Source of the DNA: Raillietiella orientalis
Lineage: Eukaryota
Assembly (NCBI GenBank): GCA_036172245.1
Contig: JAYWIR010000026.1
Coordinates: 124,001-188,000 of the forward strand
Length of the DNA stretch: 64,000 bases
Direction: 5' to 3'
Under the pieces are notes generated by a model. The model ran no database searches. It was not told the DNA's origin and worked only from the letters and a program-made list of their open reading frames with translations. How positions within the stretch are numbered: the first letter of the stretch is position 1; every line of letters begins with the position of its first letter. Both the position numbers and the translations under genes were made by a program. Below are positions 3,765 through 40,400 of this stretch, piece by piece.

Positions 3765-3892
3765 CTGAAGGAGACGTTGATCAGCGCATTCCTCCAGCAA
3801 GAGCGCGAGTAGGAAAGAAGAGAGGGTTGGAGGTTCATGCGACCCAAAAGCTCCAGCAGTAGCTTCTGGTCCACGCAGTCGAACGCCTTGTG
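3765..3892 (-). mobile_element. RT fragment of a host LINE, starting at HKAFDCV
   Basis: Minus-strand HKAFDCVDQKLLLELLGRM...WRNALINVSF. Confidence 0.85.
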
Positions 3893-5265: not shown

Positions 5266-5369
5266 CCTCCAAGGCCAGTAGGAGGACGTGTTTTTCCTTC
5301 ACTTCCCAAAGAGTAGTAGGAAAGCGCTTTTTCTTCTGTGTGGTGTTTTGTGTACATCGTCGGTGTCCA

Positions 5370-10711: not shown

Positions 10712-10933
10712 TGATCCCTTCCCTGCCCTCCAACTTCTTTTTGTCTGTTTATGTTTTTTATTTTTCTTTTTGTTTTATCCCCATCCCCCTTTGCTGCTGA
10801 GGAACGCTACGCTGGGCTGCGTCCCGGCGTCCCGGCAGGTCCAGTGCATATGGCCGTGAGCGGAGCCTTGTACCGCGGATGTAGAGTTGTTTTTTTTTGA
10901 AAAAAAAAAGCCCCGGGCGTACCCGGGTGTAAA

Positions 10934-12116
10934 CCTCCAACGCCAGTTGGAGGACGTGTTTTTCCTTCACTCTTCAAGAGTAGTAGGAAAGCGCATTCTA
11001 GTGTGTGGTGTTTTGTGTACATCGTCGGTGTACAATGGCCACAAAGCCAGAGAACACCGCGATGGAGGTGACAGTGGGGGAGTCTAGTTCGTCCCCACAG
11101 CCTACTGGAGCAGGGGCAGCCGCCCCGGAATCATCCCCGGCCACGCCGAGGACATGGAGCGTAATGGTGGCCGCGCCCAGCGCAGAAGCCATGGCGGAGA
11201 TGGCCGCATACAAGGCCTCCGGGTACAAGCCATCGCTTGTCTACCAGGTAGGCAACTTGTTCGACGTCCGGACAGCGCGCGCCTTCAGCAAAGCGTTGAA
11301 GGACGCGAATGTTACTGAGAAGGATCTGGACGCCCTCTTCGTCCTCAGCGGCGGGCAGCGGGTCGAGGTGGTCTGCAAAGATGTCACCTTGGCTCACCGC
11401 CTAATCCATGCGCCGCTGAACGTAGACGGCCGCAAGATCCTGCCAGTATCTATGGACCGCTCCGTGGTGGCCCACATGACTGGCATCACCAGCCGCATGA
11501 CGCGGTCAGCGGTTGGTGAGGAATTGCGGAAATACGGTGAGGTGCACGCACTGTGGCCGAAACCCTCCATTTTCGACGGCTCCGATAGCCTTTTTCGTGG
11601 GCAGGCTGCAGCGCGGGTCACCGTACGGGAGAATTGTGGGCTTCCCCACAAACTACAGGTGGCGCAAGAAAACGTCGACCTGTGGGATGTAGGGAAGCCC
11701 CGGTATTGCGGGCATTGTGATACCGTGGGATACCTACGTAAAAGGTGTCCCAATATACAATGCCATTTGTGCGGGGAGCGGGGCCACGTTCGGCGCCTGT
11801 GTCCCAAACGCCCCACTTCGGTTCCCCCTGCCGCAAAAAAAGCTCAGAGGAAACGTGCTTCAAAGGTCTCTAGACCTAAAGTAGAAAAGGGCCAGCACAA
11901 GCTGCCAACACCTCAACCTCCGGCGCATAAGCCGGAGGATAAACCTTCTGAAACGTTGAAGGCGAAGAGGGATGGCAGCTTGTAGAGGCCAGAAAGCCGA
12001 GGAAACAACCACCCGCGGAGAGCAAAGAGCGCAAGACGGCCGGTAAGCCGAAAAAACCCGGTCCGCGCTCGAAAACTCTGCGCGAGTGCACGGTGGCACT
12101 GGAACGAATCGTCGTT
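10934..12116 (+). mobile_element. Family A copy 2, 5' part (head-to-tail with copy 1), internally deleted
   Basis: GGACGTGTTTT at 10952. ORF1 from ATG 11035 is near-identical to copy 1 and breaks at ECTVALERIVV. Confidence 0.9.
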
Positions 12117-12122
12117 AAATCG

Positions 12123-18000: not shown

Positions 18001-19197
18001 CAATCCTGGAGTGTCCGCAGCCTGGAGCTCAGTATGAACGTGCGGAGATGTTCCGCCGCGTCCGGAAGCTTCAGCCAGTCCCCTGGGAGGCGTCACGCTG
18101 ACGAGGGGGGGCCCCTGTCGCGAGGATGGATCTCGCGGACTAGCGGGCGATGGTCGGACAGCTCTTACGGTAACTTGCCGCGCCTGCCCACGCGAGGGCA
18201 CAGGTACTCGTCCAGAAACACGTGGTCAATGCTGTCTTCCATCCACGGTGCACTGGCCAACAGATTACAGGTGTGCACCGCCATGCACACCTCGTTGACC
18301 AGTTCACGCTAAGGATTCTGCTCATCTGGTTTCAGGCGAACGTTGAAATCGCCTGCAACCAGATGGGCATTCCGCACGCCTGCTTCGGTCAGCCAGTCTC
18401 GCCGGAGGGCAAGGAAAAACTCTTTCCTCGCCCTCCTGTTCATCAGGTCCTTGCCGCTCGGTGCGTACACGTTCGTGACGATCAGATCGATCGAGTCGGT
18501 CCACCTGAGAGTCAGCTGGCCGACACGACCGTGATCGTCGAACCGCACGCCCCGAGCCGCGGCCTCGACGGCTGGCCGAAGCAGGTAGGCGACACCGCAA
18601 CTTTTTACTCTCCCACACCTGTATCATAGCCGCCCTCCGGAGATCCGTTCGATCTCTTGCGCTTGTTCTGCAGAGATCACGTGGATCTCCTGCAGCAGCG
18701 CAAGGTCGTAGGACTCAAGAAGGGCGGCCATGTCTCGTCTCCTGCCGGCGTCTGTCATGCCGTTCACGTTCCAAACGGCGATGCGCAGACGACGGCGGGA
18801 GGAGATTCCCGGCATTACTGCTGGGAAGATTAAGGTGTGGGGGAGCCCTCCTCTTGCGAGGCGGGCGAGATGTCCATGGGGGTTTCGGCCTTCTCAGGCA
18901 CCTGAGGCACCTGTTCGGCCTCCACCCCCTCCATTCCCTCCGTGTCCGTGCGTGGGAGTCTCTCGGGCGACGGGACCCGAGAGTTTCCCACGCTCATGGC
19001 ACCCTCGCTTGCGGAAGCCATCTCTTCGCCTTCGACGGGGGAGACGAGCTTCCTTGGCTTTGTGGACTTACGTCCAGCGTTCTTGCGCGGTGCCGTAGAA
19101 ACGGAGGCTGCGCTTCCGGACTCCACCTCGGGGTCGGAAGTGGGGGACTCCTGAGGGGAGGCCGGAAGCCTTACGGCCTTCTTGCCAGCCTAGGAGG

Positions 19198-22100
19198 TTT
19201 ACACCCGGGTACGCCCGGGGCGTTTATTTTTAAAAAACAACTCTACATACGCGGTACAAGGCCCCGCTCACAGCCATATGCACTGGACCTGCCTGGACGC
19301 CGGGACGAAGCCCAGCGTAGCGTTCCTCAGCAGCGAAGGGGGATGGGGATAAAACAAAAAGAAAAATAAGAAAAAAAACAGACAAAAAGAAGTTGGAGGG
19401 CAGGGAAGGGATCACTGAACGCTGTGAGGAGGGCCCATCCGTTGAAGGAAGCCCTCGAGATCCGTCCGTATATTACCCAGTTGGGGTCATCCGGCAGCTC
19501 TCCGCATGAAGCGTTGGGCGTATGGGATGACATCCCTCGCGTGTGGACCCACTCCTTTGTTATTGGCGTCGCTCCATGCCGCCAGGATTCCACGGACACA
19601 GCACAAGGCTGCGATGGCTGCGGCTGGCTGCAGTGCGTCCTTCACGAAGAGGGGCCGAAGAACGTCTCTGGGGGTGCTGCCCGTAGGGAGACCTAGGGTC
19701 GCCCCGAACCGTTCCCAGAGGGGTCGGATGGCAGCACAATCCACAATAAGCTGGGGAAGCGACTCCCGCTCCCCGCACCTGGCACACGCAGGATCCACAG
19801 CTCCCCTCGTCCAGTGGAAGCGACGCGCGTTGCAGGGTAGACCCCAGTGCAACAAAAGCAACGCCGACTCTTGCCACTTAAGGGGCAGGATCCTGGATTC
19901 CTTAAATACCGGGGGCCACTTCAGCACATCCGTAGGGATGGCGAGCAGCTCGCCCCATCTCATTAGTCCACGCGGCTGGACGCTCGGGGTCGTGGCGTCC
20001 GCCAGTTCTCCTGTGGTCCAGCCGCTTAACACCTTCTCCCTGCCTGCGATCTGGCCGGTGACTTGCCACCTCGGCTTCTGGCAATCCTGAAGCGCCCTCA
20101 GGAGGTAGGGCATCGCCGTAGAAGGGGGGTCGTCAACGCCCACTTGCGACTCCGAGGAAATTCCAGTATTTCCCGCAGGGTGCGGTTGGCGTATGGGCCG
20201 ATTCGCAGGCAGTTCATGTGGTTTTCGCTCCTCCGGTTCAGCTTAGCCCATGTGCCAGTAGACTCCTCTAACCAGGCGGAGGAGTTGGCGGGGCCACAAA
20301 CCATCCAACCGTTCGTCTTCGCCAAGGTTGCTATGCGTCCGAGCATAAGGCCGCATCTTCGGATCTTCCGGCCAGGGCACAGAAGAAACGACGCGAGTCC
20401 TTCGCATCGGGACACACGCCTGGCGAGGTGGCGGGCCGGAACGCACCAAGGGGTGCTCCACCTCTTCGCTGCGATGGCGAGGGTTCGCCACCGCAGCTGG
20501 ATTTCCACGCGCTCCAGCGTCAGGAGGCCAAGGCCGCCGTCCCGACGCGGAGCGCACAAGTCCTGCAGAGGGACTCGGGGCCTCCCCTTGCCCCAAAGGG
20601 CGATGCAGAGGAGGTCCTTCGTCCTCTTTTTGCATTCTCTGGGGGCGGAGCAAACAGAAAGCAAGGGGCGGAGGATGGGGGCCGCGAAGGCGTTCCAAAC
20701 CGCGGCCCGTTCCGGCAAGTGCAACTTGCCTTCCAGGAACGGGCCGATCGCCGTCTCGACTTTTTGAAGACAGCTGGACCACGCTTCCGCAGGGGAGTAG
20801 TCACCCAACGGCACAGCAAGGTACTTGAGGCACCTCGCCGTGAAGATCCCCAGACGGACCCAGTCCTGCTGCCCTGCCCACGCCGCACCTACTGGCACCA
20901 CCGACGACTTCGCCCTGTTGACCTGCAGTCCGGTCCCACGGCTGAGCAGATCGAAGAAGTCTCCGACCGCCTTCGCCGGGGTGGATATAGGTAACAGGAG
21001 CAGAAGGTCGTCGGCATAGGCTGCTACGGCGGGCGTGCCGGGACACGAGCTAGGCAAGAAGGCCAAAGTCACCCTGTAGGCTCTCAGCACCAACTCAAAG
21101 AAGGTGCTGAAGAGCAGGGGACTCAGGCTATCTCCCTGCCTGATGCCTCGCCGCACCGGCACGCCATGCACCTTCTGACTGCTGAAAGAGACGGAAATTA
21201 TGGCATGGCGCCAGTAGGAGCGCAGTTAGTTGATCAAGGAGGGTGGGAAGCCCATGCGACCCAGGAGCTTCAACAAAAGCCCCTGGTCAACGCAGTCGAA
21301 CGCCTTATGGAGATCGACTGCGAGCGCTAAGGCCCCCTTCCCCGCCCGGGAGTCCATTCCCTGCCCTGCTGGCGGCCCCAAAGTGGGGTTGCCGATTTTT
21401 CCTTTCCCTTCCTTTTGACACCTCTGCGCGTGCATCCACGTGCTCGCGAAGAAGAGGTTGGCATCCATACTTCGCCCGGTAACAGCATATGTCTGCTCCG
21501 GGCTAATAATGGATTCTGCCACCTGCCCCAGACGCGAAGCCCATAGCCCGGCAACCAACTTGGCGTCCGTATCCACAATCGTGATCGGACGCCAGTTGTT
21601 CAAATTCCTAAGGTCTGCCCCTTTCGGAAGGAGCCTCACTCTGGCTGACCGAAACGAGGCGGGAACATCGCCTTCGTCTCGGATCAGCCTTGTCAGCTGC
21701 AGCAGCAGGGGTGCCAGCTCTTCCACGAAACTCTGATAGAACTCCGCGGGCAAGCCGTCTTCCCCTGGAGCTTTCCGCCTGTTGAGCCTTTTGATACCGG
21801 CAAGAATTTCGCCGGTGGTAAAAGGCTCATCGAGGCTTAACGACTCCTCCTCCTCTATTGCCGGGGCACCATCCGGAAGCAAGAGCCGAGAGGCATCTTG
21901 ATCCGGGGGCGCCCTGGCGTAAAGGGAGGTATAATAACTCCGCACGAGATGCCGTACCGACGCCAGGGACGAACATTCCCGGCCCTGGTCGTCCAGCAAG
22001 CAGGCCGACCCGGATTCCCAGGCTTGGCGTTCGGCCCCGGCGCGGTACTCGGCCAGGCGACGGACATTAGGGGTTCGCACGTACCTACGGGCCTGCAAAT

Positions 22101-25100
22101 AGGCCCGATCGTTTCGAGGACTCTCGCCGAATCCGGAGGGCAGGCGGCCCAGGGGGAACTGCTCGCAGAATTCCCGGACCGATTCCTTAAAAAGGTCCCA
22201 GTCTTGGAGATTCCGGAGCGCGACGTCTCTCAGGTGTTCGCGAAGGTGTTCCTTCGCACCTGAGAGTCGCGTCCAGTCCCCCGGCAGACGCCAGTCTCTG
22301 GATGGCGGTCCTTTGTCGCGAGGCCGCATCTCGAAAATTAACCGGGAATGGTCCGACAACGTTGACGCAACCCTCCCCCGTTTGCCGACCCGTGAACACA
22401 GGTCAGCGTCGAGGAAGACGTGGTCGATGCTGCGGACTATTCCCCTCTCACCCGCGAACAAGTTGCGCGCACGCATGGCGGCGCACAACTCGTTCATCGC
22501 GTTCACCTGTGTTTCCGGCTCACCTGTTAGCAGGCGGAGATTGAAATTTATCACCCGGTCACGCCGGGGCGTTTATTAATAATAATAAACTGGTCAGGGA
22601 CAATGTCCCCAACCAAGAGAACGACAGAGAACATAGAAAAATTACCGGCACGCAGGCCTGGTAAACAAACCGCTCGCAGCGTGGGGGGAATGAGGGGAAA
22701 CAAACAAAAATCAAAAAGTGGAGGGAAGGGTAACGGGTTTTTGGTTATGCTCCGAACTCACGGGGATTTATACGATGAGCACCTAGAATGTTCCGGACCC
22801 TATGGGGACGCGGGTGTAAAAAGAAAATACAAATTTAGTTTATGGAGGGTAGGGCAATGATCACCGAGTTGGCCGCTCATGAGGGTGTGTAAACCGGCGG
22901 TGTACTGCGGCGAGATTCCTCTTTGTCTCCTCTGTCAAATGAGGCCATCTAGCGGATGCTTCCATGTAGAAGGATGCTTTGCTGATTACCTCTTGGTGCT
23001 GTCCGTTGATTACCAACGCCTGGCGGACGGAAACTATCGCGCGTATGCAACCGATGGTTGCAATCCTTGCGCTTAGTGAAAGCCCGCTCGGCGTGAAGAA
23101 TCGTCGCAGCAAGTCTCTTGCGGTGTCCACGGGATGCAATAGTGCTGTTGCCAGCCTACGCCACAGTCCTTGTAGGACACCGCAGTCCAGAAGTAGGTGC
23201 GGAATCGACTCCCTCGATCCGCACCGAACGCAGTTCGCAGACGCAAGTCCCCCGGAGTCACGATGCCAACGCTCGTTGCACTGAAAACCCCAGTGAACGA
23301 AAAGCAGCACGGCTTGTTTCCAAGCAAGGGGGAGCAGCGAACTGTCAATACACTGTGGAGGGACTACAAGTTCTTCGGGGGTGACAGCAAGTTCTTCTAC
23401 CCACCGGAGGAGTCCCTTTGCAGTAACACGAGGAGTGGCGGCGTCCGCCAACTCACTTGTCTTCCAGGTGCCAAGGAGTTTGTTTCTTCCCGCTATCGTG
23501 CAGGAAACCTCCCACCTCGCCGGTTGGTAACTGTCGTTTCTTGCCCTGAGGGCAAACAGCGCTGCGGCAAGAGGCGTGGCAGCCAGGGTAGAAAACTTCA
23601 CCTCGTCCTGCAGTACTTCTTCCAAGGATCGTGGAAAAAATTGGCGCAGGGGGCGAAGATCTTCAGGGCGTATTCCTTGGAACGCCGCCCAGGATTCAAC
23701 AGACTCCTGCCGCCAAGCTTCAAAGTTCATTGGGCGGCAGGAGATCCACGAGTGAGCTTCCAGAAGTGCGGTCAACTGCCGCAATGGAAACCCGAAACCC
23801 CGCTTCCTGTATTAAGTGCCAGGAAAAAGCAAGAGAAATCCTCCACTGCCGGCGCATCTCCGCAGGAGAATGCGAGCTGGCACACACAGGGGGGATGTCC
23901 ATAGCTGGGCACACAGTGCCAGCAGTCGGAACTGCACCTGCAGTCCGATTCGCTCCATTGTCAGGATACCCAAACCAGCATCCCGACGCGGAGCTGACAA
24001 ATCTTTAAGGCGGATCCTGGATCTCTCCGGACCCCACAGAGCGTTCCTGAGCAGGCGCTGAGCGCGCTGTTCTGCCGCATAGGGGGGGTCCAAAACAAAA
24101 AACAGGGGACGGAGGAGGGGGGCCACAAAGGTGTTCCAAATAGTCGCCCGTTCCTGCAAGGTAAACTTGCCGTTAAAGAAAGGGCTGATGGCCAACTCTG
24201 CTTTCTGAAGACAGTCCGCCCACGCTTCGGCTGCGCCGAAAGCGCCCAACGGAACGCCAAGGTACTTAAAGTACCCGCCCGTGGGGATCCCAAGGCGGAT
24301 CCAGTCGGACTGCCCCTCCCACGACGTACCCACAGGAACGACCACGCTCTTCTCTCTGTTCACGCTCACGCCCGCTCCCCGACGAATCAGTTCGAAGAAA
24401 TCCTCGACACTGGACGCCGGGGTGGACATGGGGAGCAGAAGAAGCAGGTCATCAGCGTAGGCGGCCACGGCAGGCGTTCCCGGGCAGGAGCTTGGCAAAT
24501 GAGACAGCGTCAGCCTGTATGCTCTTAGCACCAACTCAAAGAAGATGCTGAAGAGCAACGGGCTTAAGCTGTCGCCCTGTCGGATGCCCCTACGAACGGG
24601 AATACCATACACGCGGCAGCCGCTAAAAGTGATGCAGGTTAGCGCGTGGCGCCAGCACGCGCGCAAATACAGCAGGAGTTGCGCCGGGAACCCAAGGCGT
24701 TCCATAAGCTCCAAAAGCAGCTTCTGGTTTACGCATTCGAACGCCTTGTGGAGATCGACCGCGACCGCCAAGGCACCTGGCGTTCCCTCCTGCCGTCGGC
24801 GCCTGTTCTTCTTGCCTGCGGCAGTGACTTTCGCAGCAGCCTTGCTTTGCTGCGCCACAACTTCCTGCAGCTGCATCCATGTACGCGCGAAAAGGATGTT
24901 CGCCTCCATGGATCGTCCCGGAACCGCGTAGGTTTGTTCCGGGCTCACCACAGATTTCGCGATTCTTCCTAACCGCGCGACCCACAGCTTGGAAAACAAC
25001 TTGACGTCCGAGTTCACCAAGGTGATCGGACGCCAGTTGTTAAGTTGGCGCAAGTCTCCGCCTTTCGGCAGGAGACGCACCTTCGCTGAGCGGGAGGAAT

Positions 25101-28100
25101 CAGGGACATTCCCGGATTCACTCATCAGCGTCGCGAGTTTAAGCATCAAGGGAATGAGCTCCACTGCAAAGCACTGATAAAACTCTGCAGGGAGCCCATC
25201 CTCGCCTGGCGCCTTTCGTCTCTTCAGCCCAGCGATGGCGGACGAAAATTCATCCGCCGTGAAGGGCTCGTCGAGACGTTCGCGTTCCTCCTCGCCGACA
25301 ACACGAGCATCTTGAGACAGGAGTATCTCAGAAAGAATATCCTCCGTCGGGGATTCCGCGTAGAGCGAGGAGTAGTAGCGTCTCACAATGCGGCGTACTT
25401 CTGCTGGGGCCGAACATTCGTGGCCCTTGTCGTCCAACAGGCATGCTGCTCCGGACTGCCACACCTGGCGCTCGGCCCTCGCCTTGTACTCTGCGAGACG
25501 CCCCACATCCGCGCGTCTCGAAAACGTGAGGTCCTGCAGAATGTCTCTACTGTTGGCCACGCCCTCTCCGAAACCGCGTGGAAGCCGGTGCAAGGGGAAT
25601 TGGCAGCAGAACTCGCGGACAGATCTTTTGAGATCGTCCCAGTCCGCAAGTTCTTGAATGGCAAAGCCCCGGAGGTATCCACGTAGATGCTCCGCAGCCT
25701 CCGGTTGGCTAAGCCAATCCGCCTGCATCCTCCAGCTTTGCAACGGAGGCCCCCTGCCTGGCGAAAGGATCTCAAACTCCAACCTGTGGTGGTCAGAAAG
25801 CTCAGTCAACAATCTTCCTCTCCTACCCACACGCGAATGCAGGTTTTCATCGAGGAAAACGTGATCGAGCGATCTTTCCATTCCAGGTTCGCTGACCATC
25901 AAGTTGGCATCGTGCACGGACGCGCACATCTCGATGGGCAGCGCGCGCTCCCTCGGGCGGCTCCAATCGTCGGAGAGCAGGCGGACGTTGAAGTCCCCAG
26001 CGACGAGGTGCGCCACTTGGAAGCCGGAGTTGTTGAGCCACTGGCTCTGCACCTCACCAAAGAAAGCTACTCTTTCTTCGAGGTAGCGAGAGCCACTCGG
26101 CTCGTAGACGTTTGTAACGACGAGATCGATGGACTCGGACCACTTGATGACAAGCTGGCCTATCCGTCCGTTGTCATCGAAACGAACACTGCGCACCGCT
26201 TCCGCCATTTTACCTCTTACGAGGAACGCGACGCCGCACGTGTGTGCGCCGCCGCACCGCCAATGTAGCGTTCCGCCTGCGCGCTCCTCGATTTCGGCTG
26301 CCTGCTCGTCGGAGATTACGTGAATCTCCTGCAGCAGCGCGAGGTCGAAGGGGCGCAGGGCGTTGGCTACTAATCGCCTCTTCTCGTCGTTCTGCAGTCC
26401 GTTCACGTTCCAACACGTTACGGACAGACGACGAGAAGACGCGATTCCCCGCATTACTGCTGGAAAGGTGGCGGCTTTTTGCTCGCTTTATCAGGCGAGC
26501 AGACGGCGAGCAGCACGACTGGCTGGCGGGGACGGTCGCCACCGTCCTCTGTCGTGCTGCATGCATGTAATGCCTCCACGCCAGGCTGAATCCCGTCGGG
26601 TTTCGTGGAGACTTCGCGTTGCTTCGCGGCGAGCGTTGCCTGGCTGCCTACTTTTGATCGGCGCGCACACGCTTTTGAACGAGTTGTCCTCGTCTCGGTG
26701 ATCGGAACGGCATCCATTTCGGAGTCCGACCGGCGCATGTTCGATCGGGTTTCGGCCTTCCGCGAAGCAGTGACAGGTTCTGCTGGATTGACAGCTGTCC
26801 TGTTTTCGTTTTCCGTCACCAGAGCATCGCTTTTTGTGACGGCTGCTTTCCCGGCGCGCGCGTTTTCAGCGTGCTCACGCGCAGTTGCACGAGGGACCTT
26901 TGCTGGAGTCTTCTTTACTTCATTACGGTTCCTCACTTCGCGTGGCGCCGTAAATGGAGATTGTGCTCCATTGCCATCTTTGAAGCCATCCTTGTCTTTG
27001 AACGGGAGCACTTTCGATGGCTCCGACACGCTCGTCATGGACGATGCTTTCGGAAGGGCTTTTAATCCCTTCGTTGGCATGGCATCCGCGCCAGTCGAGA
27101 GCTTGCTGTCCGACTGCGACGGCGTGAGATTTGTCTCCGCTTTCGCGGTGTTGGATCGCGACGCGGATTTTTTTTTGCCGACTTTCGAAGTCGACACGGC
27201 ACAACCCTTCTTACCCGATTTGGGCTTCTCAGCCACTGCAGGAGGTGAGGGAATGGATCTGACGGTACTGGAAGTGTCCTTACCGCCGTTGTCCATTGGC
27301 GTCCCCGCCGGTTGCTCGAACTCCGAGAGAGCCGGGCGTGCTTGGGAAGGACAGCTATTGCGCCTAGGGGGACTTACCATTGCCTCGGATTCCCCGCACC
27401 ATTTCTTTTGCGGCTCCCTTGCCGCGAGAGGGGGTGCGCAGGGCTTCGCGTGCGAGATTTCCTGCTGCTTTGGGGCGACATTCCGCCTCGCGTTTTTACC
27501 GAATTTCTACCGTGGGGTCTCCAGGTTTTTCGCAAATTTTTTCTTTTTATCCGCGCTTTGTTTCTTAAGATGAAGCTCCGCGGCTGCCTTTTTTCGCAAA
27601 AGATCCGGGCAAGTTTTCAATTGGTGCCCGGATAGTTTGCAATAACGGCATTTTCCAGAGAAGCATTTATCCAAACAATGCCCCTCCTTCCCGCATTGCT
27701 CGCACGTTTTTACTTTGCCCACGAACCACAGGTGAACGACCGTGTCTTTCACCTGTAGTTTCGTGGGCAGCAGACGGCGGTCCGGCATTGTAAGCCGGTC
27801 TCCAGCGACTCCGCTGTGTATGGACGGGAAGTCCTTGAGGTTGCTACGCACCCTCCACAGCGCATGGACCGTGGCGAATTTCGCCAACGCGTTCCGAATA
27901 TCAGTATCGGAGATTTCCGACTCGATGTTAAAAATCTCCACCACAAATGAGTCGTCCATGGCGGCCGGGAAGTCCTTCTGGCCACGGATCGACAACGGGG
28001 TGCGCAGCAAGCGTTGCACAAGTGCAGCGTCTTTGCAACGCACCTTGAAATAGCCCATGTCTTTTACGGGCATAATGAAGAGAAGGTCCTCCTCCCGCAC

Positions 28101-30778
28101 GCCAACACGGGTCAGTTCATGGTTGAACTGATTCCCGTCGCGCGCAGAAAGAAAACCAATCACCTTATATCGGAGAGCAGGTCTATAGCCTTGGGCTACG
28201 TATGCCCGCAACTCCGACTCGTCGAGTGGTTTCCCTTTGACGGCTGCAGTGGCAGCAACGTCAGCAAAACTCCTCTCCATTGGCGAGAAAGACGAAGTGG
28301 AGGCGGCCGTCGGTTCCGCGATTGCAGATCCGGATGCTGTTCCTCCAACTTCAGTAGCTTCAAGTTGGGTCGACATCGTCGTCAAAAGGTACGACGCCAA
28401 GATGAAGCAGATGAAAGCACGTAGACGAGAGCGAAGAAAAACACGTCCGCACTCGATTGAAATCTCCCGCTATCAGGTGAGCCTTCCGCACGCTCGTGTT
28501 CGCCAGCCAGTCGCGCTTCAAGGATTCAAGCAGCTTGGTACGGTTGCTGTATCCCTTTTGACCGGTTGGGGCGTACACATTCGTGACGATCAGATCGATC
28601 GAGTCCGACCAGCCGAGAGTCAGCTGACCGACCCGACCGTCGTCATCGAAGCGCACGCCCTTCACGGCAGCGTCGATGGCCGGCTTCACGAAGAACGCGA
28701 CCCCGCAGGTGTTGCGGATGCCGCATTGCCAGTACAGCCGACCCCCCGCGATCGTCTCGATCTCCTGGACGTCTGCCGCGGTGATCACGTGGATCTCCTG
28801 CAACAGGGCCAGGTCGAACTCCCGCAGGGTGTCGGCTGTATCTCGCCTGTTACCGTCGTCGCGCAGCCCGTTGACATTCCAACAGGCCGCGCGAATCCGA
28901 CGGCGACTGGCGAGCCCAGGTGTTACTCCTGGGAAGATGGCAGTGCGGCGTCCGCCACCTGCTGGGGCGGGACGCTAGGTGGAGCAGGGGGGTCAGGTGC
29001 TCTAGGCACCTGGTCCCCCTCCTCCATCGGTGCCGGCGCGTCGGCCGGATCACCCGCAGGTGGAGTCGCGCCTACCTGTTCGCCCTCCTCCATGGGGGCG
29101 GGCTGTTCAGGGTCGGCGCCTGCAGGGGGGACTTCACCCCCCTGTTCACCCTCCTCCATGGAAGTGGCCGCATCGACGGCTTCCGAGCGTGGGAATTCCT
29201 CCTCCGAATTTCCCACGCTGGCGACGGCTTCCGTCTTCTCCTCCTTGCTGGTGGAGGGGAGGCTCCTCCTGGGCTTCTGGGACTTGCGTCCCGACTTCCT
29301 CGGGGGTGCCTCCGAGGAGGAGGATGTGCTTCCGGCCCCCAGGTCTAACTCACCTTTGGGGGCCTTCCTCGCCGGAGCCGGCCTTCGCACGGCCTTGCGC
29401 GAGGGGTTCTCACGCTCGGCCAGCGTGACCGCGAGCTCCTCCGCCGCCTGCGCGAACGCGGCGTCCGCGGCTTCGACCGCCGCTATGTCGCGCGGCTCAC
29501 CCTCTGTGTAAACAGAGGGTTCGCCGTCGCGAGCCTCGGGCGCAGCGGAAACGGCAAGGGGAGGATCGACGCTCCGGGTGGCAATCTCGGGAACGACGGT
29601 TCGTTCCAGTGCCACCGTGCACTCGCGCAGAGTTTTCGAGCGCGGACCGGGTTTTTTTGGCTTTCCGGCCGTCTTGCGCTCTTTGCTCTCCGCGGGTGGG
29701 AGTTTCCTTGGTTTTCTGGCCTCTACATGCTGCCATCCCTTTTCGCCTTCCACCGTTTCAGAAGGTTTATCCTCCGGCTTACGCGCCGGAGGTTGAGGTG
29801 TTGGCAGCTTGTGCTGGCCCTTTTCCACTTTAGGTCTAGAGACCTTTAAAGCGCGTTTCCCCTGCGCTTTTTTCGCGGCAGGGGGAACCGTGGTGGGACG
29901 TTTTGGGCACACGCGCCGAACGTGGCCCCGCTCCCCGCACAAATGGCATTGTATATTGGGACACCTTTTACGTAGGTGTCCCACGGTATCACAATGCCCG
30001 CAATACCGGGGCTTCCCTACATACCACAGGTCGACGTTTTCTCGCGCCACCTGTAGTTTGTGGGGAAGCCCACAATTCTCCCGTACGGTCACCCGCGCTG
30101 CAGCCTGCCCACCAAAAAGGCGATCGAAGCCGTCGAAAATGGAGGGTTTCGGCCACAGTGCGTGCACCTCACCGTACTTTCTTAATTCCTCACCAACCGC
30201 TGACCGCGTCATGCGGCTGTTGATGCCAGTCATGTGGACCACCACGGAGCGGTCCATTGATACTGGCAGGATCTTTCGGCCGTCTACGTTCAGCGGCGCA
30301 TGGATTAGGCGGTGAGCCAAGGTGACATCTTTGCAGACCACCTCGACCCGCTGCCCGCCGCTGAGGACGGAGAGGCCGTCCAGTTCCTTCTCAGTAACGT
30401 TCGCGTCCTTCAACGCTTTGCTGAAGGCGCGCGCTGTCCGGCCGTCGAGCAAGTTGCCTACCTGGTAGACAAGCGATGGCTTGTACCCGGAGGCCTTGTA
30501 TGCGGCCATCTCCGCCATGGCTTCTGCGCTGGGCGCGGCCACCATGGCGCTCCATGTCCTCGGCGTGGCCGGGGATGATTCCGGGGCGGCTGCCCCTGCT
30601 CCAGTAGGCTGTGGGGGCTAACTAGCCTCCCCCACTCCCACCTCCATCGCGGTGTCCTCTGGCGTCGTGGCCATTGGACACCGACGATGTACACAAAACA
30701 CCACACAGAAGAAAAAGCGCTTTCCTACTACTCTTTGGGGAGTGAAGGAAAAACACGTCCTCCTACTGGCCGTGGAGG
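19198..30778 (-). mobile_element. Family A full-length copy 3, interrupted by family C
   Basis: Reverse-complement homolog of 5266-10933. ORF1 30674->28923. ORF2 28923->~19415, split at GDFN (28455/22547). 3' hairpin at 19204-19219. Confidence 0.95.
22548..28454 (-). mobile_element. Family C full-length LINE (~5.9 kb) with a 9-bp flanking duplication ATTTCAATC
   Basis: 5' GGACGTGTTTT at 28448. ORF1 ~28376->26454 (CEQCGKEGHCLDKC, CRYCKLSGHQLKTC; frameshifted). TAATG overlap, then ORF2 26454->22861 with a frameshift near 23815. GATTGAAAT at 22539-22547 and 28455-28463. Confidence 0.93.
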
Positions 30779-32145
30779 GTTCTGGCTGCAAGGAGGCTGC
30801 CATCTCCTCCGCGGCTCGCGCGAAGGCTACGTCATCGATGGTGGTGTGGATGACGGACGCCGCCGCCGGCTCGCTCCCCTCGCTGTTAACTGTGTCAACA
30901 GAGGGGTTGTCGTCGGTAGCGGCGAGTTCTTTCCGGCAGCGTTCGACAACGACGCTGCACTCTTTAATTATCGCGCTACCCTGCTCTTTCTTCTTCTGTT
31001 GGTAGGTGATTTTCTTTTCCATCCTCCTCTCCTTCTTTGATTTTTTGGCCGTTGCCACTTGCCACTCAGTCTCCTGGCCGGCTCCCTCAACTTTTTCGGC
31101 GTTGGTCGCCGGGGTCTCGGGTGCGGCCTGGGTCTTGGGCGCGGGTGGCACAGCCTTCGCGGCAGCTTTCGCCGCCAGTCTTTTCTGCAGAAGCCGGGCG
31201 CGTTTTTTAAGGTTTCTCTTGGAAACCACCCGCACTGCTGCTTTTGGGCACACCTCCCTCGTTTGGTCAATCGTGCCGCATACTTGGCACTGCACATTGG
31301 GACACCTCTTTTTGAGGTGGCCCGACGTATTGCAGAAGCCACAGTATTTCGGCTTCCCCACATACCAGAGGTCGACGGTTTCGCCTTCGACCACCAGTTT
31401 GTGGGGAAGAGTGCAGCCCTCCCGAAAGGTCACGCGCGCAGCAGTGAGGCCGTGTTGCAGCCCCGTGTAGTCCTCGAAAGGACTAACTTTCGTCCACTGC
31501 GCGTGGAACGTTCCGAACTGTTCCAAAGCGGCGCGAACCTGTTCTTTGCGCATTCGCGCGGTCACGCCTAACAGGTGTACCACCATGCTGCGGTCCGATG
31601 TACTGGGGAGAAGCCTGCGCGTCCCCATCACAACGGGGGTTTTAAGCAGTCGTTAGGCCAGCTCTGCATGTTTGCAGATGACCTCAACGTACTGACCCCC
31701 GCTGCGGATGGTCATAGCGCTGAACTCCTCCTCTTTCACATCGAGAGCGCGCATGCCCTTCGAGAAGGCGCGCGCGCTCTCTAAAGAATATGAATTGCCT
31801 ACCTTGTAGAACAATGAGGGGTTGTACCCCTCTTCCACATAGGCCGACAATTCCGCCGCGGCTGCAGGCGATGGCGCCGACACAACGGCGCTCCACGCCC
31901 GCGCTGCAGCGGGGACCGATTCTGTGGGGGCGGATGCCCCCACCTTCATCGCCTCTGGGGACGACGTTGCCGCCGCCCCCTGGCTCTCCATCGCCTCTGG
32001 GGGCGGCATAACCGCTGCCCCCTGGCCATCCCTGGTGGTCGCGTCAGGCATCGCTGCCTGATCGACCACCGAACCACACGACGCTTGCACTGGGGGAGAC
32101 TTCCTGGAACGAGGAGCACCGAGAAAACACGTCCACCCTGGAGCG

Positions 32146-34247
32146 CACAAGGCGTTCGACTGTGTAGACCAGGAACTCTTCTTGGAGCTCCTGGGTCGCA
32201 TGGGCTTCCCACCCTCCCTGATTTCCTACTTGCGCTTTTGCTGGCGGAATGCGATGATTACCGTCTCTTTCAGCGGTCACAAGGTCAATGGCGTGCCGGA
32301 GCGGCGGGGCATAAGGCAGGGAGATAGCCTCAGCCCCCTGCTCTTCAGCACCCACCTTGTGTTGGTGCTGAGAGCCTACAGTGTGACTTTGGCCTCCTTG
32401 CCGTGCTCGTGCCCCGGCACGCTCGCCGTAGCAGCGTACGCCGACGATCTTCTGCTCTTGTTGCCAATGTCCACCCCGGCAAAGGCGGTCGGAGACTTCT
32501 TCGATTTGCTCAGCCGCGGGACCGGACTGCAGGTTAACAGGGCGAAGTCGTCGGTGGTGCCAATAGGTGCGGCGTGGGCAAGGTAGCAGGACTGGGTTCG
32601 TCTGAGGATCCCCAAGGCGAGGTGCTTCAAGTACCTTGATGTGCCGTTGGGGGACTACTCCCCTGCGGAAGCATGGTCCAGCTGCCTCCAAAAAGTCGAG
32701 ACGGCCATCGGCCCGTTCCTGGAAGGCAAGTTTCACCTGCCGGAACGGGCCGCGGTTCTGAACGCGTTTGCGGTTCTTATCCTCCCTCTGGCTTTTTGTT
32801 TGCCTTTTCACCTTGGAAACCAAGAAAAGGACGAAGGACCTCCTTCATATCGCCCTTTGAGGCAAGGGGAGGCCTAGAGTCCCACTGAAGGACTTGTGCG
32901 CTCCGCGTCGGGACGGCGGCCTTGGCCTCCTGACGCTGGAGTGCGTGGAGAAGCAGCTGCGGTGGCGAACCCTCGCCATCGCAGCGAAGATGTGGAGCAC
33001 CCCTTGGTGCACTCCGACCCGCCTCTTGGCCAGTCGTGTGTCCGGGTGGGATGGACTCTCGTCTTTTCTTCTGAGCCGTGGCCGGAAGATGCGAAGATGC
33101 GGCCTACTGCTCGGGCGTATGGCAACATTGGTCAAGGAGAACAGCTGGATTGTTTGCTGCCCCGCCAACTCTTCCGCCTGGCTGGAGGAGAATATTGGAA
33201 CGTGGGCAGTGGTAAACCAGAGGAGCCACAAGACGTGGAATCGTCTCCGATGCAGCCCCTACGCCCGCTGCACGCTGCGGAATCTCCTGGAGAGTTAAGC
33301 AAGATGCATGTGGGCGGAGACGACCTACCTAGCCACGGCGCTGCCCTTCCTGAGGAGGGCACTTCACAGCAGCCGGACCCAAAGGTGGCAAGTCTCCTGC
33401 TGCATCGAGGGACGCGAGAAGTTGATCAGCGGCTGGACAACAGGAGAACTGGCTGATGCCACGACCCCGAGCGTCGAGCCGCGAGGATTATTAAGATGGG
33501 GCGAGCTGCTCGCCATCCCCAGGGATGAGCTGAAGTGGCCGTCTGTGATGAAGGAATCCAGGATCCTGCCCCTTAAGTGGCAAGAGTCGGCGTTGCTTTT
33601 GTTGCACTGGGGTCTACTCTGCAACGCGCGCCGCTTCCACTGGACGAGGGGAGCTGTGGTTCCTGCGTGTGCCTGGTGTGGGGAGCGGGAGTCACTCCCC
33701 CACCTTATTGTGGATTGTGCTGCCCTCCGATCCCTTTGGGAACGGTTCGGGACTTCCCTCGGGCTCCCTACAGGCAGCACCCCCAGAGACGTCTTTCGGG
33801 CCCTCTTCGTGAAGGACGCACTGCAGCCAGCCGCAGCCATCGCAGCCTTGTGCTGCGTCCGTGGCATCGTGACGGCATGAAGCGACGCCAACAACGAAGG
33901 AGTGGGTCCACAGGCGAGGGATGTCATCCCGTATGCCCAACGCTTCTTGCGAAGAGCTGCCGGATGGCCCCAACTGGGGAATATGCAGACAGACCTCGAG
34001 GGCTTCCTTTGACGGATGGGCCCTCCCCTTAGCGACCGGTGATCCCTTCCCTGCCCTCCAACTTCTTTTTGTTTGTTTCTTTTTATTTTTCTTTTTATCT
34101 TATCCATATCCCCCTTCGCTGTCGGGGAGTGCCACGCCGGGCTGCGTCCCGGTGTCCCGTCAGGTCCTGTGTTTACTTTCGTGGTGGGGCCTCGTACCAC
34201 GCATGCAGAGTTTACAAATAAACGCCCCGGGGGTACCCGGGTGATAA
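32146..34247 (+). mobile_element. Family H LINE, 3' half (from RT HKAFD to 3' end)
   Basis: RQGDSLSP, YADD, C-terminal finger. Distinct 3' UTR. AATAAACGCCCCGGGGGTACCCGGGTGATAA at 34217-34247. Confidence 0.9.
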
Positions 34248-36870
34248 CGCCGAAGCCCGGCGGAAGACGTTCCAGGGGAAACTGGTCGCAAAACTCGCGG
34301 ACTGAGCACTTCATTTCGTCCCAGTCCGCGAGCGTCTGAAGATGGAATCCTCGCAGGAAGGCGCGTAGATGTTCCGCCGCTCCTGCGAGGCGCAACCAGT
34401 TTCCTGGCAGGCGCCACGTTTCCAGGGGAGGGCCTTTGTCGCGTGGATGTATCTCGAGCACGAGCCGTGGATGGTCGGACAGCTGTGCCGGGAGCGTTCC
34501 TCGATTTCCCACCCGCGTGCATAGGTGGTTGTCGAGGAACATGTGGTCGATGTTTTGATCTCTCCCGGCATCACCGGCCAACAAGTTGAGCGCATTCCTG
34601 GCTGCGCACAACTCGTTGACCAGTCGTGCTCGACTGCTGGGAGCACCTGCCACAGGCGGAGATTGAAGTCGCCCGCGATGAGGTGCGCCCGCCGTACGCT
34701 TGCTTCAGCCAACCAGTCTCGCCGCAGGGATTCGAAGAACGCAGTGCGTTCCTCGGCCCTGTAGCTGCTCACCAAGGCGTACAGGTTCGTCACCACGAAA
34801 TCGATCGAGTCGGACCACTTGAACACAAGCTGTCCAACTCGACCGTCCTCGTCGAACCTAACGCTGCGCAATGCGTTGTCGACGGCTGGCATTAGCGTAA
34901 AGGCCACTCCGCAGGAGCGGTCGTTTCCGTTCCTCCACAGTAGCCGCCCTCCTGCGATGCTTTCGATTTATTGGACATCTCCTGCTCTGAGAACGTGCTT
35001 CTCTTGCAGGAGCACCAGGTCGAACTCTGGCAGTATGGCGGGTACGTCTCGCATCTCACCGTCGTCGCGCAACCCGTTGACGTTCCAACAGGTGATGCGC
35101 AAGCGGCGGCAGGAGACTAGCCCACGCATTGGTGTATTTATGGTGGGGTGGAGGCGGCCTCCTCCCTTTCAGGAGGCGGCTCGTTGGCGGCCGTGACGAC
35201 GGTCGGCTGCTCACACGGGAGCACGTCGTCTCCAGCGACTTCCATTGGGCTGGCTTCCGTGACACGGACGGGAGAAGGGTCGCGTGGCGCGACGCACATT
35301 GCCTCCGCCTCCGCACCCAAAGACATGGGCTCCTCTACTTGGGAGGAGGCGACACGTCTCAGGCATCCGGCCTTCTTGCCACCCTTTCTCTTCGGCACGG
35401 CTGTGGAAGTAGAGCAACCGGCTTCAGCGTCCTACCCGGAAGATTCCGGGTCCTTCGCCGTCGCCGGTCGTCTCAAGGCCTTCTTTTCGGCCTGGCAGGC
35501 TGCCGCAACATGGCTGCCAGCTCTTCTGCGGCCTGCGCGAAGGTCGCGTCTGTGATACGCGCCGCCTCATCGCTTTCCGCACCGACGATCGGCGCAGGCG
35601 CGACGGGGACGGCTTTATAGACCGGCGCGCAGACGTCCTTCGCTGGCAATGCCGGAGCGGCATTCTCTTTAGCTGATGGTGATGTCACTGCGGGCACGAT
35701 CGGCTCCGATACAACGGTATCAATCGCATTCACCGTTACTTTCTTCACGGCTCTTGCGATCGACACGCGTTCGATTTTCACTGAACAAGCGCGGACTGCC
35801 GGCTTCTGCTTCTTCGGAGCCGCCTTGTTAATTCTTTTTACCTCCTTGATGGGGGCCTTCTTCTTCTTCACCACCTTCTGCCAACCTTCCTCGTTCCCTG
35901 CGCTTTCTCCAGCTGGTTGTTCGCTGGAGGATGGCTGAGCAGCGGGTTGGTCGGCAGGGTGGGTTTCTGCCAGTTGTTGGCTTCGGTCCTTTTCCTTCGG
36001 CGTCTCTTCCTTTCTCGCGCCTGACGAAACGGACCTTTTTCGGTTGGGGCACAGCCCAAGCACACGATGTTGGGGCATTTCTTTTTTAAATGCCCCGACA
36101 CCTGGTAAAAGCCGCAGTAAACGGGTTTCCCCACATACCACAGGTCGATCTCTTCGTCTCCGACCTGTAGTCTGTGGGGTAGCCCACCCTCGGCACGGAC
36201 TGTCACGCGCGCAGCGGCGTACCCACTAAAAGCCCTGGTGTAACCCAGGACATTGGGTTTCGCACACAACGCGTGGACGGTGCCGTATTGCTCTAAAGAT
36301 TCGCAAGCGGCGGTCTTTGCCATTCGCATGGTGATGCCGGTGAGGTGGACAACGATGGAGTTGTCCGCCGTGAACGGGAAGATTCTTCGACCGTTCACCG
36401 TCACCGGCAGGCGGAGCAGCTGCTGAGCCATCTCTGCAGACTTGCAGTTCAGCACAACCAGCTGCCCGCCACTTCGCACGGAAAACCCGAGGACTTTTTC
36501 CTCCGGGACTTTCAATTTCTTAAATTCGGCCGCAAACGACCGCAATACCGCGGGGGAGTACAGGCCACCTACCTTGTACAGGAGGGCCGGGTTGTATCCG
36601 TCGGCCATGTACGCTTGCTGTTCCTCTGCGGGGGGCGGCGCAGGCGCCGCCACCACCGCGCTCTAAGCCCTCGCCGGGGCGAAGGACGAATCCGTGGGGG
36701 TGTTGGCCCCAACATCCATGGGCTGGGGGGACAAGGCTCGCTGGCGCCCCTCCGCCGTGTTGGCGGTGTCCTCGAGCATTGCTTCCCAGGAACAACCGCT
36801 CCAGAAAACACCGCAAACACTCGCAAAAAAAGGTTTTCGGCAGCACCGAAAAAACACGTCCTCTCACTGC
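34248..36870 (-). mobile_element. Family D LINE 5' part: ORF1 (~36779->35138, disrupted) and APE (35129->34248)
   Basis: GGACGTGTTTT at 36861, GYNPALLYKVG, MRGLVSCRRLRITCWNVNG, HLIAGDFN, IDH, LSDH. Ends at LPPGFG. Confidence 0.9.
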
Positions 36871-37492: not shown

Positions 37493-40400
37493 ATCAGTTA
37501 ATTGTGCTCGTGTGTGCCCGGAGAGGGGAAGTTTTCCAGACGAAACTACAAAAGAAGCGCCGAGGAGATCGCGGCAAAAGACCTGCAGTGGTCCCGTGCA
37601 GCAAGACCAGCTGCCAGGATGCAGGCACCTAGAGGAGGAGTGGAGAGACCGTCGTCCCCCATGGAAGCCATGGAGGTAACGTGCGGCAACGGCGAGGCGG
37701 TGGCAGGCATGCCGAGGATCGCGCCCGCGGCGGGCTTTGCTGCGCCGGCGGCGGCGATGCCAAGGGTCGTGCCCGCGGCGACGACGGCGAAGGTCGTGCC
37801 CACGGCGGCGACGCCGAGGATCGTGCCCGCGGCATGGAAGGTCGCGCCTGCGGCGGCGATGCCGAGGGTGCCGCCCGCGGCGGCAACGGTGGCGACGTCG
37901 AGGGTTGCGCTCGGAGCGGCGGCGTCCCAGGCATGACCTACGGGCATCCACGCGGTTCAGGGCGAGACGCCATCTTGTTCGGCTGCGGCGGCGCAGCCCT
38001 TTTCCTATGCGTCGGTGGCGGCTGGACAAGCGAGTGTCCACCCACCAAGAAAATTCGGGAAGCCGCTATGCGGTAAAGTCCAAAAGGTAGATCGGCCGAT
38101 CGTGGAGTTAGGGCCGAATGTGAAGCCCATCATTTTCAAGACTGGGCTGATCAAGTTCAATAATATCAGGGAGGTGTATCTGTCCCTCGATAAAACGGAC
38201 ATGAATTTTGATCGCATACAGGCGATCATACCAGCAAATAACGGGTTCACAGTCTTCACAGACTGTGAAAAGATTAGAGAGCGATTGATCCAGAAGGGGA
38301 TCAATATACAAGGGAGGATGGTTTGTGGTGTTGGCGAGATGCCATACACAACCGTGTTTCTGAACGGCATCTCCATCCTTACACCGCAACTAACGGTGTG
38401 GAACTTTTTGGAGCAGTATGGGGAAGTTCTGGACCTTGAATTCCAGAACTTCTCTGGAAATATATTTTCTGGCGACATGATCGCCAAAATGAAGTTGAAA
38501 GAGGGAGCTGTGATCCCTGGATTAGCCGTTCTTGACGAACAATCCCAGGGAGTGAACGTGCGTTACCGGCAACAGCCGATATTCTGCACCGGGTGCAAGC
38601 AGTTCGGCCACAGGTCCGGCGCTTGCCCAACGTGTCGTTGTTTCCGCTGCGGCAAAGTAGGACATCAAGTCCGAAACTGCCCGCAGCCGGAGGTGTGCTC
38701 CTTCTGCAAGAAACACGGACATGCCAAATGGAGCTGTCCGGAGTTTGCAAACTGCAGAAGGATTCGAGGTCTCTCTCCCGTGAGAGAGAGAAACACCAAG
38801 GAGGCGGAACAGCCTCAGAAGGCAGGAAGGCCGAAGAAGGTGAAAGAAGCCGTCCCGGTATCGGAAGACGGCTTCATACAGGTAGGGAAGAAAGGAAAGA
38901 GGAGGATGCTCGTCAAGGAGCAAGAAGCTCCTCTTATCCTACAAGGTCAAGAGCAAGAAGGCGACAAGATGGAGGTAGCGCAGGAAGGCGCGGAAGAAGA
39001 AATAGCCGAAGCCACTCCGGTGTCGCAGGAGGCCCTGCAATCTACGGAGGAGTTGGCATCACTAGCTAATGAAGTCCTAGAGGTGCAGAGCGGTCCCCAG
39101 CAAGAGAAAATCTTGCAGAAAATCTGCAATGCACAGGAGAAGGTCAACCAGGTTGTGAAGGTCACCGAGCGCGAAAAGCTAGAGGAACAGCTTCTCGACG
39201 TAAAGGCGAACTTTTGCGCCAAGGTCCAGATAGAGACGCTATCTCAAAAACCGATCGCGCGGGCCGAACACTCGACGGAGGAGGCGGAAGTAATCGACCT
39301 CACTGGAACAGACAGTGACGCCGGCAGCGAGAAGCCCGCTGCTTCTTCATTGTCTGGAAGAGCACGCTCTCTCAGACAGAAGAAGCTCAGGAAGGCCAAG
39401 AAATAGGTCTTCCCCTTTTATGGCCTCTTCCCTATCGACCGCCAGGAGGCTGAACATCGCCTCCTGGAATGTAAACGGTATGGTCGACCAGGGAAAAAGA
39501 AAAAGGATTGTGCGGACCATCGCACAACAAGACATAGTGTGCCTGCAGGAGACCCACAAGATGGGTCTCGAGATTAGTCAGCAAGTGGAACGGCGATTCA
39601 ACGGGCAGATTTTCGTCAGCGAGGGAGAACGGAACACGCAGGGTGTGGCGGTCCTAATCAAGAACAACTTGGCCCCCACTATTCTGGAAGTGTTCTGTGC
39701 CCAACCCGGACGAATCATCGGCGTGCGACTGGCCTGGTCCGCTACTGTTCACCTCATCCTGGTGAACGTGTACGGGCTGCACAGGCTAAAACATCGTTGT
39801 GCGGAGGCGCTGCATGCAGCACTCCGTGAAAAGGTCGCCCCCAAGGACGTCGTGATTGTTGCTGGCGATCTCAACATATTGGATGAGATCACTCACTCCG
39901 AAGACGCCAGAGGAAGGACGGCGTATCGGCGGTTATCCGACGAGTTCGGACTCGTGTGGCCAACTGCAAGTCAAAAGCCGATCGATCACGTCCTGCACAG
40001 CACCGAACTTGGAAATCGCATCCAGGGTTTTCGAGACATTATGACCACGGTGTCCGATCACCCCCTGGTGCGGTTTTCCCTAAGAACGGAGAATCCTCGG
40101 CGGAGGCAAGGCACCAGGGTGGCGCTCATCAGCATGCCCGCCTGGTTCGAAATTCATCCCGGACATCAGGCTGTCCTGGAGACGATTCTGAAGGCAACAA
40201 CAATCCGAAGAGTCGCCAGCTGGGCCAGCCTAAAACACAGGATACACCTGTTTGCAAACATGCAGTTCGGGGATAGGCGCTTGAAGCAGGAGGCGTACCA
40301 GGAGGTGAACATCCAAGATCGCTCACTCTCAAAGTACTTCGATCAGTACGAGAGTTGGTACGTTTTCAGAAACATAAAAGGGGAAGTCGGCGTGCGGGAG

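Follow-up and report, generated by a model that had tools for sequence, protein, structure and literature searches.

The 64,000-nucleotide stretch of Raillietiella orientalis DNA analysed here (contig JAYWIR010000026.1, positions 124,001 to 188,000; hereafter the window) contains a long interspersed nuclear element (LINE), which we call C, lodged in the codons Gly-Asp-Phe-Asn (GDFN) of the endonuclease gene of a related LINE. Its full-length copy, C1, is an L1-like LINE of 5,907 bp on the minus strand (22548-28454) that encodes an endonuclease and a reverse transcriptase (RT), and its presence at these codons is a real, recurrent and site-specific LINE-in-LINE insertion. With a probability of roughly 0.78, we propose that C belongs to the L1 group of LINEs, is autonomous or was so until recently, and would integrate by target-primed reverse transcription (TPRT) at GGAG^ATTTCAATC^TCC in the GDFN codons of a host LINE named Y, in the orientation of the host gene.

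C1 is bordered on both sides by an exact 9-bp duplication, ATTTCAATC. Along the minus strand the arrangement is ...CTGATAGCGGGAG ATTTCAATC, then C1 (from 28454 down to 22548), then ATTTCAATC TCCGCCTGCTAAC..., with GGGAG before the upstream repeat and TCCGCC after the downstream one. In the second open reading frame (ORF2) of the host, the 9 bp take in two nucleotides at the end of the Asp codon, all of the codons for Phe and Asn, and the opening nucleotide of the Leu codon; without C1 and one copy of the repeat the host frame reads L-I-A-G-D-F-N-L-R-L-L. A preliminary description of this DNA had reported both the flanking repeat and the restored ORF2 sequence AGDFNLRLL, and our readings agree with it. 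The empty site is found in an uninterrupted copy of Y within the assembly A1 (3765-10938), whose halves align to either side of C1 and overlap by exactly 9 bp at 7578-7586. The duplication was observed in the single copy of C, of the three in the window, that has both ends. The features of this locus are as follows:

22548-28454, minus strand: C1, full length
28455-28463, minus strand: upstream copy of the target-site duplication ATTTCAATC
22539-22547, minus strand: downstream copy of the target-site duplication ATTTCAATC
7578-7586, plus strand: target site ATTTCAATC, empty, in the Y of A1, which runs on uninterrupted

Logan contigs from public runs were compared with positions 22000-29000 (136 contigs for run X1, which holds 53% of the sampled words, one for X2 and nine for X3). 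Among the matches listed, one X1 contig carries the empty-site joint from 22538 to 28455, with nine letters shared and a side of 30, and the X1 contigs at the C1 junctions enter the host by 19 and 30 letters, under the bar of 31, and were not counted as bridging.

In a phmmer search against the PDB, the host segment LIAGDFNLHL was aligned with LIMGDFNTPL of the human L1 endonuclease (1VYB), such that the host GDFN corresponds to G144-D145-F146-N147 in the printed chain numbering of that entry. The alignment agrees with the earlier statement that GDFN is a catalytic motif of apurinic/apyrimidinic endonucleases (APE); in the human enzyme, D145 and N147 are catalytic. The break in the host ORF2 falls just past the Asn codon: the upstream fragment retains the codons for Asp and Asn, and the remaining APE and the whole RT are displaced by 5.9 kb. 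Since ORF2 is split, each hit by C inactivates a copy of Y. We do not follow the preliminary description in saying that C "specifically destroys" the endonuclease of its host, as this reads purpose into a consequence and the Asp and Asn codons are left in place upstream; the loss of the host endonuclease is a consequence of the landing place and not a demonstrated function.

A blastn search of C against the window, at an identity of at least 85%, returned exactly three copies, namely C1 and two shorter ones on the opposite strand, which are listed here with their hosts (Y' being a second copy of Y):

12124-14699, plus strand: C2, C positions ~3330 to 5907, 96.8% identical to C1
14700-15040, plus strand: host flank of C2, starting with ATTTCAATCTCC; Y' sequence over 341 bp, beginning at the GDFN site
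10939-12123, plus strand: 5' part of Y', the host of C2; it has a full-length 5' end and follows the Y of A1 in tandem
48186-50386, plus strand: C3, C positions ~3707 to 5907, 90.6% identical to C1
50387-50478, plus strand: host flank of C3, starting with ACTTCAATCACC; ~92 bp of Y-like sequence

C3 is ~91% identical to C1 and to C2. All three copies finish at the same 3' nucleotide, followed by A(T/C)TTCAATC and host sequence, and all lie in the sense orientation of the host. The 3' junction is GGTGATAA/ATTTCAATC in C2 (14692-14708) and GGTGACAA/ACTTCAATC in C3 (50379-50395); these two additional 3' ends, whose following sequence the preliminary description gave at 14700 and 50387, were found again at the same site by junction reads and blastn. 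The 17-mer that joins the last 8 nt of C to the 9-nt site, with up to three mismatches allowed, has three matches in the window against 0.05 expected from 100 shuffles, none of which gave three matches (0/100).

The 5' sides of C2 and C3 are of another kind. C2 is fused directly to Y' at approximately Y position 2702, and the joint lacks ~1.1 kb of host together with ~3.3 kb of C; it could have come from a 5'-truncated insertion that deleted 1.1 kb of target or from a deletion at a later time. The host flank of C2 ends at 15040/15041, where the 3' end of an X element in antisense cuts it. An X-type element in antisense (47013-48185) cuts C3 with its 5' end at the RT codons H-K-A-F-D (HKAFD), and the ~92-bp flank of C3 gives way to a different A-like element, from about Y position 3236. 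With C3 cut by antisense X at HKAFD and C2 fused to host sequence 1.1 kb upstream of the site, we rejected the idea that both are plain 5'-truncated insertions.

The window holds nine distinct GDFN sites, and C occupies three of the four that belong to the Y family and none of the five in other families (0/5). Those left unoccupied include the site of C1 itself, GACTTCAACGTC (GGG GAC TTC AAC GTC), that of X, GATTTCAACGTT (GGC GAT TTC AAC GTT), and the following one:

51063-51071, plus strand: GDFN site ACTTCAATC without C, in a diverged A-like element whose identity to A1 varies along its length (79-87%)

No off-target copy of C was found in the window (0/3). The earlier statement that C lies at the GDFN codons of "family A" was right as to one exact nucleotide and one orientation, but not as to a single family A, since the host is Y. 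A loose regional preference for LINE nests, set by chromatin or a tethering factor, would make the common site a coincidence or the product of a weak sequence bias; LINEs of the Zepp type do target existing copies, with no nucleotide site stated in the passages of the source (PMC8226300), and two X1 contigs, among the matches listed, have another flank. Against this, the chance of hitting the same nucleotide and strand of a 5.7-kb host is ~9e-5 for two independent hits and ~8e-9 for three, and the register is identical in 3/3 copies, so we consider a loose preference highly improbable.

The host deserves a closer description, because what had been taken as one family is two nested elements. 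The identity profile of the A1 and A2 assemblies (A2 being the one interrupted by C1) jumps at position ~1499, from 86-92% before it, one window of 96% excepted, to ~96.5% after it, and is uniform across the C site. At ~1499 a LINE 5' end begins (..AGGAGGACGTGTTTTTCC..) behind AACCCTCC, and the same 7-8 bp, AACC(C)TCC, occur next to the Y 5' end and after the Y 3' end. From the LINE 5' end at the identity jump and the repeated AACC(C)TCC, we read "family A" as the 5' part of an element X plus a complete element Y placed at a fixed site of the linker between ORF1 and ORF2 of X, and the real host of C, as judged from these sequences, as Y. In A2 the host is divided in two parts:

28464-30774, minus strand: 5' part of host Y (copy A2), with the 5' end, ORF1, linker and APE up to GDFN
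19200-22538, minus strand: 3' part of host Y (copy A2), with the rest of the APE, RT, C-terminal region and 3' hairpin

The 3' part of this Y (19200-22538) is 96.8% identical to the uninterrupted copy. Behind the Y of A2, X resumes at 19192-15041 with its APE and RT; the segment 15041-19192, at one time considered a separate family B, was therefore rejected as such, since it is what remains, on the 3' side, of the X in which Y and C1 lie. Y is found in sense orientation at AACC(C)TCC of X at 5255-5271, 10931-10939, 30766-30782 and 19193-19199. The two X copies holding Y are ~9% diverged and their Y copies ~3.5% diverged, and Y' lies head to tail behind the Y of A1, from 10939.

X in turn has a fixed site of its own. 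Its 5' ends at 3892/3893 (plus), 32145/32146 (minus) and 48185/48186 (minus), of sequence ..GGGTGGACG(C/T)GTTTTCTC.., each adjoin the codons H-K-A-F-D of an RT in antisense, in three hosts that differ from one another: a 128-bp fragment, an A'-type element and C3. We read these junctions as a second series of fixed-site, antisense insertions. The divergence between the A1 and A2 assemblies can be given by tier:

Hosts of X: 24/128 differences, 18.8%, between the two comparable host flanks
X: 120/1,358 differences, 8.8%
Y: ~3.5% divergence

Copying of a finished composite would be expected to give equal divergence at every tier; divergence that drops tier by tier, with each host older than its insert, fits repeated, separate insertion into pre-existing copies.

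The 3' end of the minus-strand X at 15040/15041 adjoins the Y' codons ..L-R-N-L/Q.., and the X 5' end adjoins a different element at HKAFD. With such unlike flanks, X cannot lie in one contiguous host, and at least ~900 bp of host must be absent or rearranged. A 49-bp HKAFD stretch of the C RT (12497-12545 and 24702-24750) matches 3844-3892 in reverse at 86-88%, because the flank of A1 is an RT fragment of A1's own host; this match can mislead boundary calls.

We then considered whether the copies of C arose separately or whether C entered Y once and the resulting composite was copied, either as DNA within the nest or by retrotransposition of the composite or of a read-through transcript with host flank, so that the junction was inherited. 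The preliminary description had named a single ancestral composite as the outcome that would overturn its claim and proposed a comparison of insert with host divergence. For C1 and C2 the comparison goes against the single composite: the inserts differ at 83 of 2,576 positions (3.2%), but between the hosts, when the 5' part of Y' and the 341-bp flank are set against the Y of A2, there are 86 differences in 1,519 positions (5.7%), 1.8 times as much (Fisher p = 2.3e-4). The Y copies of A1 and A2 are ~3.5% diverged on both sides of the site, and Y is not evolving faster. In the 346-348 bp that follow the site, 13/348 differences separate the empty A1 from the host of C1, while the host of C2 has 31/346 with the empty A1 and 27/346 with the host of C1. 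The empty copy is nearer to the host of C1 than the host of C2 is; consequently, a single composite ancestor of the two hosts would also have to be the ancestor of the empty copy. In addition, the duplication of C1 is clean, with the full host restored on either side, and C2 is flanked by host on both sides. These comparisons argue firmly for C1 and C2 as separate insertion events.

C3 is probably a third insertion event, older than the other two. The tree ((C1,C2),C3) has 26 polarised shared-derived sites versus 5 versus 4, with private polarised changes numbering 54 in C3, 16 in C1 and 14 in C2. The ratio of nonsynonymous to synonymous changes is 9:14 on the internal C1/C2 branch and 34:13 on the C3 terminal branch (Fisher p = 0.0098). 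Purifying selection on the branch between C3 and C1/C2 speaks against composite copying, as it indicates that the lineage was kept functional and hence was spreading by retrotransposition; moreover, the X insertion that cuts C3 is absent from C1 and C2. The window does contain repeated composite junctions of 80% identity (33014-35092 versus 52724-50640), as copying would predict, and C3 itself offers some support for it, discussed below. Taking the two sides together, we regard the copying of one ancestral composite as unlikely.

A further possibility is that ectopic homologous recombination or gene conversion moved C between Y copies in a homing-like manner, without a sequence-specific endonuclease. 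The hosts are repeats of 92-97% identity crowded in one nest, which is favourable ground for such exchange, and a small patch shared by C2 and C3 around a common stop codon could be a conversion tract. However, the host flanks of C1 and C2 diverge from 32 bp past the junction, with seven differences in the first 82 bp, such that a conversion tract would need to stop almost exactly at the end of C; the 9 bp duplicated at C1 bear the signature of staggered nicks; and C has an APE and an RT of its own and has been under selection. For these reasons we find the transfer of C by conversion very unlikely.

Several observations weigh against recurrent, exact insertion by C itself. C2 and C3 have a common in-frame stop, at a codon that is Trp in C1 and Leu in the related family D/E, which hints that they descend from a common ancestor already inactivated, that a defective line was mobilised in trans or that a small tract was converted, and to this extent favours composite copying. 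The ~92-bp flank of C3 differs at 7 of 82 positions (counted by eye), a divergence equal to that of its insert (~9%), and it ends at an unrelated junction with another A-like element, like a transduced flank; for C3, then, the flank may still have been carried along by a read-through or a rearranged composite. Both junctions are present in C1 alone, so the 9-bp duplication has n=1. Three unoccupied sites carry TTCAATCTCC (7578, 51063 and 34669). Among the matches listed, two X1 contigs have a C-like 3' end beside different sequence, an off-site flank that matches window positions 18654-18681 at 26/28 positions, antisense to the APE of X; they point either to a sister lineage with another target or to imperfect specificity of C. 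The two copies of family D/E have differing, loosely similar 3' flanks (..ATGAACGACGACGC.. and ..ATGCGAAGACGCC..). Finally, the firm evidence all comes from one 64-kb window.

Family D/E (44567-47012 and 53086-54925), a sister of C, is 65-71% identical to it; its copies are 92% identical to each other, and in both the 5' side is interrupted by the 5' end of a LINE in antisense. It was dropped as a further test of the GDFN target, because its two copies have other flanks that differ between them. A metagenome search for relatives of C gave two loci of 38-41% identity, on contigs of 1.4-1.8 kb with no usable junctions.

C1 starts with GAGTGCGGACGTGTTTTTC and ends with ...AATAAACGCCCCGGCGTGACCGGGTGATAA, without poly(A), and has two long frames and a structured 3' end:

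26454-28376, minus strand: C1 ORF1 frame, 640 codons, one internal in-frame stop
22861-26454, minus strand: C1 ORF2 frame, 1,197 codons, one internal in-frame stop private to C1
22548-22607, minus strand: C 3' end, with an AU-rich hairpin, a CCCGG/CCGGG hairpin and the 6-nt tail UGAUAA

ORF1 contains a Cys/His-rich, zinc-knuckle-like stretch, which had no match in the Pfam search, and its stop overlaps the start of ORF2 in the sequence TAATG. Within ORF2, an APE at aa 15-222 (~25789-26412; Pfam Exo_endo_phos, 1.4e-12) and an RT at aa 463-734 (~24253-25068; RVT_1, 6.5e-21) were both above the cut-off, while the C-terminal Cys/His motif matched zf-RVT weakly (E 0.0046, 18 bits, below the cut-off of 27.5). 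The GDFN codons of C1 itself, at 25987-25995 (minus), read GACTTCAAC. This order, ORF1 followed by an ORF2 with APE, RT and a C-terminal Cys/His motif, agrees with the layout of the L1 group. Among solved structures, human L1 ORF2p is the best relative of the C ORF2 (5e-45, against 7e-15 for R2). The protein search placed C in no clade, its top match being 60% identical and from a metagenome; the named matches are plant or algal L1-like proteins of 23-29% identity.

The layout of two hairpins and a tail at the 3' end is common to families X, Y, D and C. The fold z-scores of the hairpins are modest (-2.2 to +0.4), and we dropped them as a strong structural signal; the case for them is the layout common across families and not energy. 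At the other end, the motif ..GGACGTG(T/C)TTT(T)(T)C.. is common to all full-length 5' ends in the window, at 28454 (C), 32145 and 3893 (X), 5271, 10939 and 30766 (Y), and 44566 and 53085 (others), and could be a common initiator or internal promoter.

In the mechanism that we propose, following the standard TPRT model, the endonuclease of C would nick the antisense strand opposite G^A of the Asp codon, and the freed 3'-OH would prime cDNA synthesis on the 3' end of the C RNA, where the twin hairpin and the UGAUAA tail are the likely recognition element for the RT; the sense strand would then be cut 9 bp downstream. Conserved, multicopy sequence that is hard to mutate is the usual landing place of target-specific LINEs. 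It is more likely that C gains such a safe, multicopy, sequence-constrained landing site than that it gains from the killing of Y as such.

From its sequence, C is best read as a target-specific LINE like those of the Tx1 and R1 kinds, with a new type of target. Many LINEs of the Tx1 clade are target-specific, with the endonuclease mainly deciding the target, and according to the passages of the same source these targets include DNA transposons and LTR retrotransposons: Tx1L inserts in the piggyBac-type Tx1D, Tx1-Mar in Mariner-N4_AMi, Tx1-9_AMi in Harbinger elements, and Tx1-8_Crp and Tx1-4_AMi in LTR retrotransposons (PMC4494074). Like them, C is an L1-group, APE-type LINE at a fixed place inside another transposable element, and the tandem double insertions sandwiching a duplication that the Tx1 paper reports, in the part consulted, for SINEU-3 (PMC4494074) are seen here for Y. 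The target of C, in contrast, consists of the catalytic endonuclease codons of another LINE and not of a DNA transposon, LTR element, RNA gene or microsatellite, and C is likened to Tx1 by its targeting behaviour and not by RT phylogeny.

R1Bm, an R1-clade LINE of the 28S rDNA, has an APE that cuts both strands of one specific sequence of a multicopy target (PMC1919474); its target, however, is a host rRNA gene and not a mobile element, and it is of a different clade, the best solved relatives of C being L1 ORF2p. The L1 LINEs Zepp of Coccomyxa and ZeppL of Chlamydomonas form LINE-only, GC-rich clusters, as far as the passages of the sources go (PMC8226300, PMC3446292, PMC9940879). As described there, they insert into existing copies and build nested and tandem arrays, a likeness in behaviour alone; those passages describe neither a nucleotide-exact target nor cross-family targeting, and the flank of the present window looks animal and not algal, which we take as a lead only. 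No nucleotide-exact site is given in the passages of PMC3446292, PMC9940879, PMC11005252 or bioRxiv 10.1101/2025.03.28.645958. With human L1 ORF2p (8sxt, 1vyb), C shares the order of domains, with matches of 5e-45 for ORF2 and 8e-4 for the endonuclease. Cleavage by human L1 follows a loose TTTT/A consensus, and its copies finish with poly(A), whereas C is confined to one exact site and closes with a twin hairpin, without poly(A).

Seen as a whole, the window may be part of a self-building, LINE-only island in which each lineage owns an exact site in another, with C in the GDFN codons of Y, Y in the linker of X, and X antisense in the HKAFD codons of A'-type elements and of C, and we offer only tentatively the idea that this amounts to a mutual-parasitism arms race at the level of codons. 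Under this tentative idea, the reason that the sites fall in catalytic or conserved codons would be that the host element is not free to alter its protein there, and escape would be possible only by synonymous changes. The corresponding codons are GAC/GAT-TTC-AAC-GTY in the sites of C itself and of X, and GAT-TTC-AAT-CTC in Y.

Other elements complete the picture of the nest. The 3' ends of A'-type elements (..CCCGGGTGATAAC) at 34243-34249 and 51483/51484 adjoin, in antisense, the codons ..P-x-G-F-G.. just past the APE of two hosts, and the two composites (33014-35092 versus 52724-50640) are 80.7% identical over 2.1 kb; either the same site was hit twice or they derive from an old duplication. 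A distant LINE at 38201-41834 (plus), 27% identical to C in ORF2, lies in a stretch of the nest with lower GC (53-54%) and has an intact-looking CCHC ORF1 and an APE-RT ORF2. At the edge of the nest, between 58500 and 64000, GC falls from ~58% to 37-40%, and exon-like frames are present; one of them, 61807-62334, had no Pfam match, and a language-model look-up led to animal voltage-gated calcium-channel alpha2-delta or Cache-domain proteins, which is a lead only.

The targets known for LINEs are rRNA genes, snRNA genes, telomeric and simple repeats, DNA transposons and LTR elements. In the full-text literature covered, which leaves out subscription journals and Repbase Reports, we found no report of a LINE targeting the catalytic codons of another LINE. 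If our explanation is true, a LINE with an exact target at the catalytic endonuclease codons of another LINE would be a new target class, and elements that land solely in each other could build and extend LINE-only islands without harm to host genes. It would also offer a testable conflict between mobile elements, in which the site is guarded by protein constraint and escape is through synonymous codons alone. C would then be a compact natural case of APE-type, single-site specificity, with a 9-bp stagger and a defined 3' RNA structure, well suited for studies of integration-site choice.

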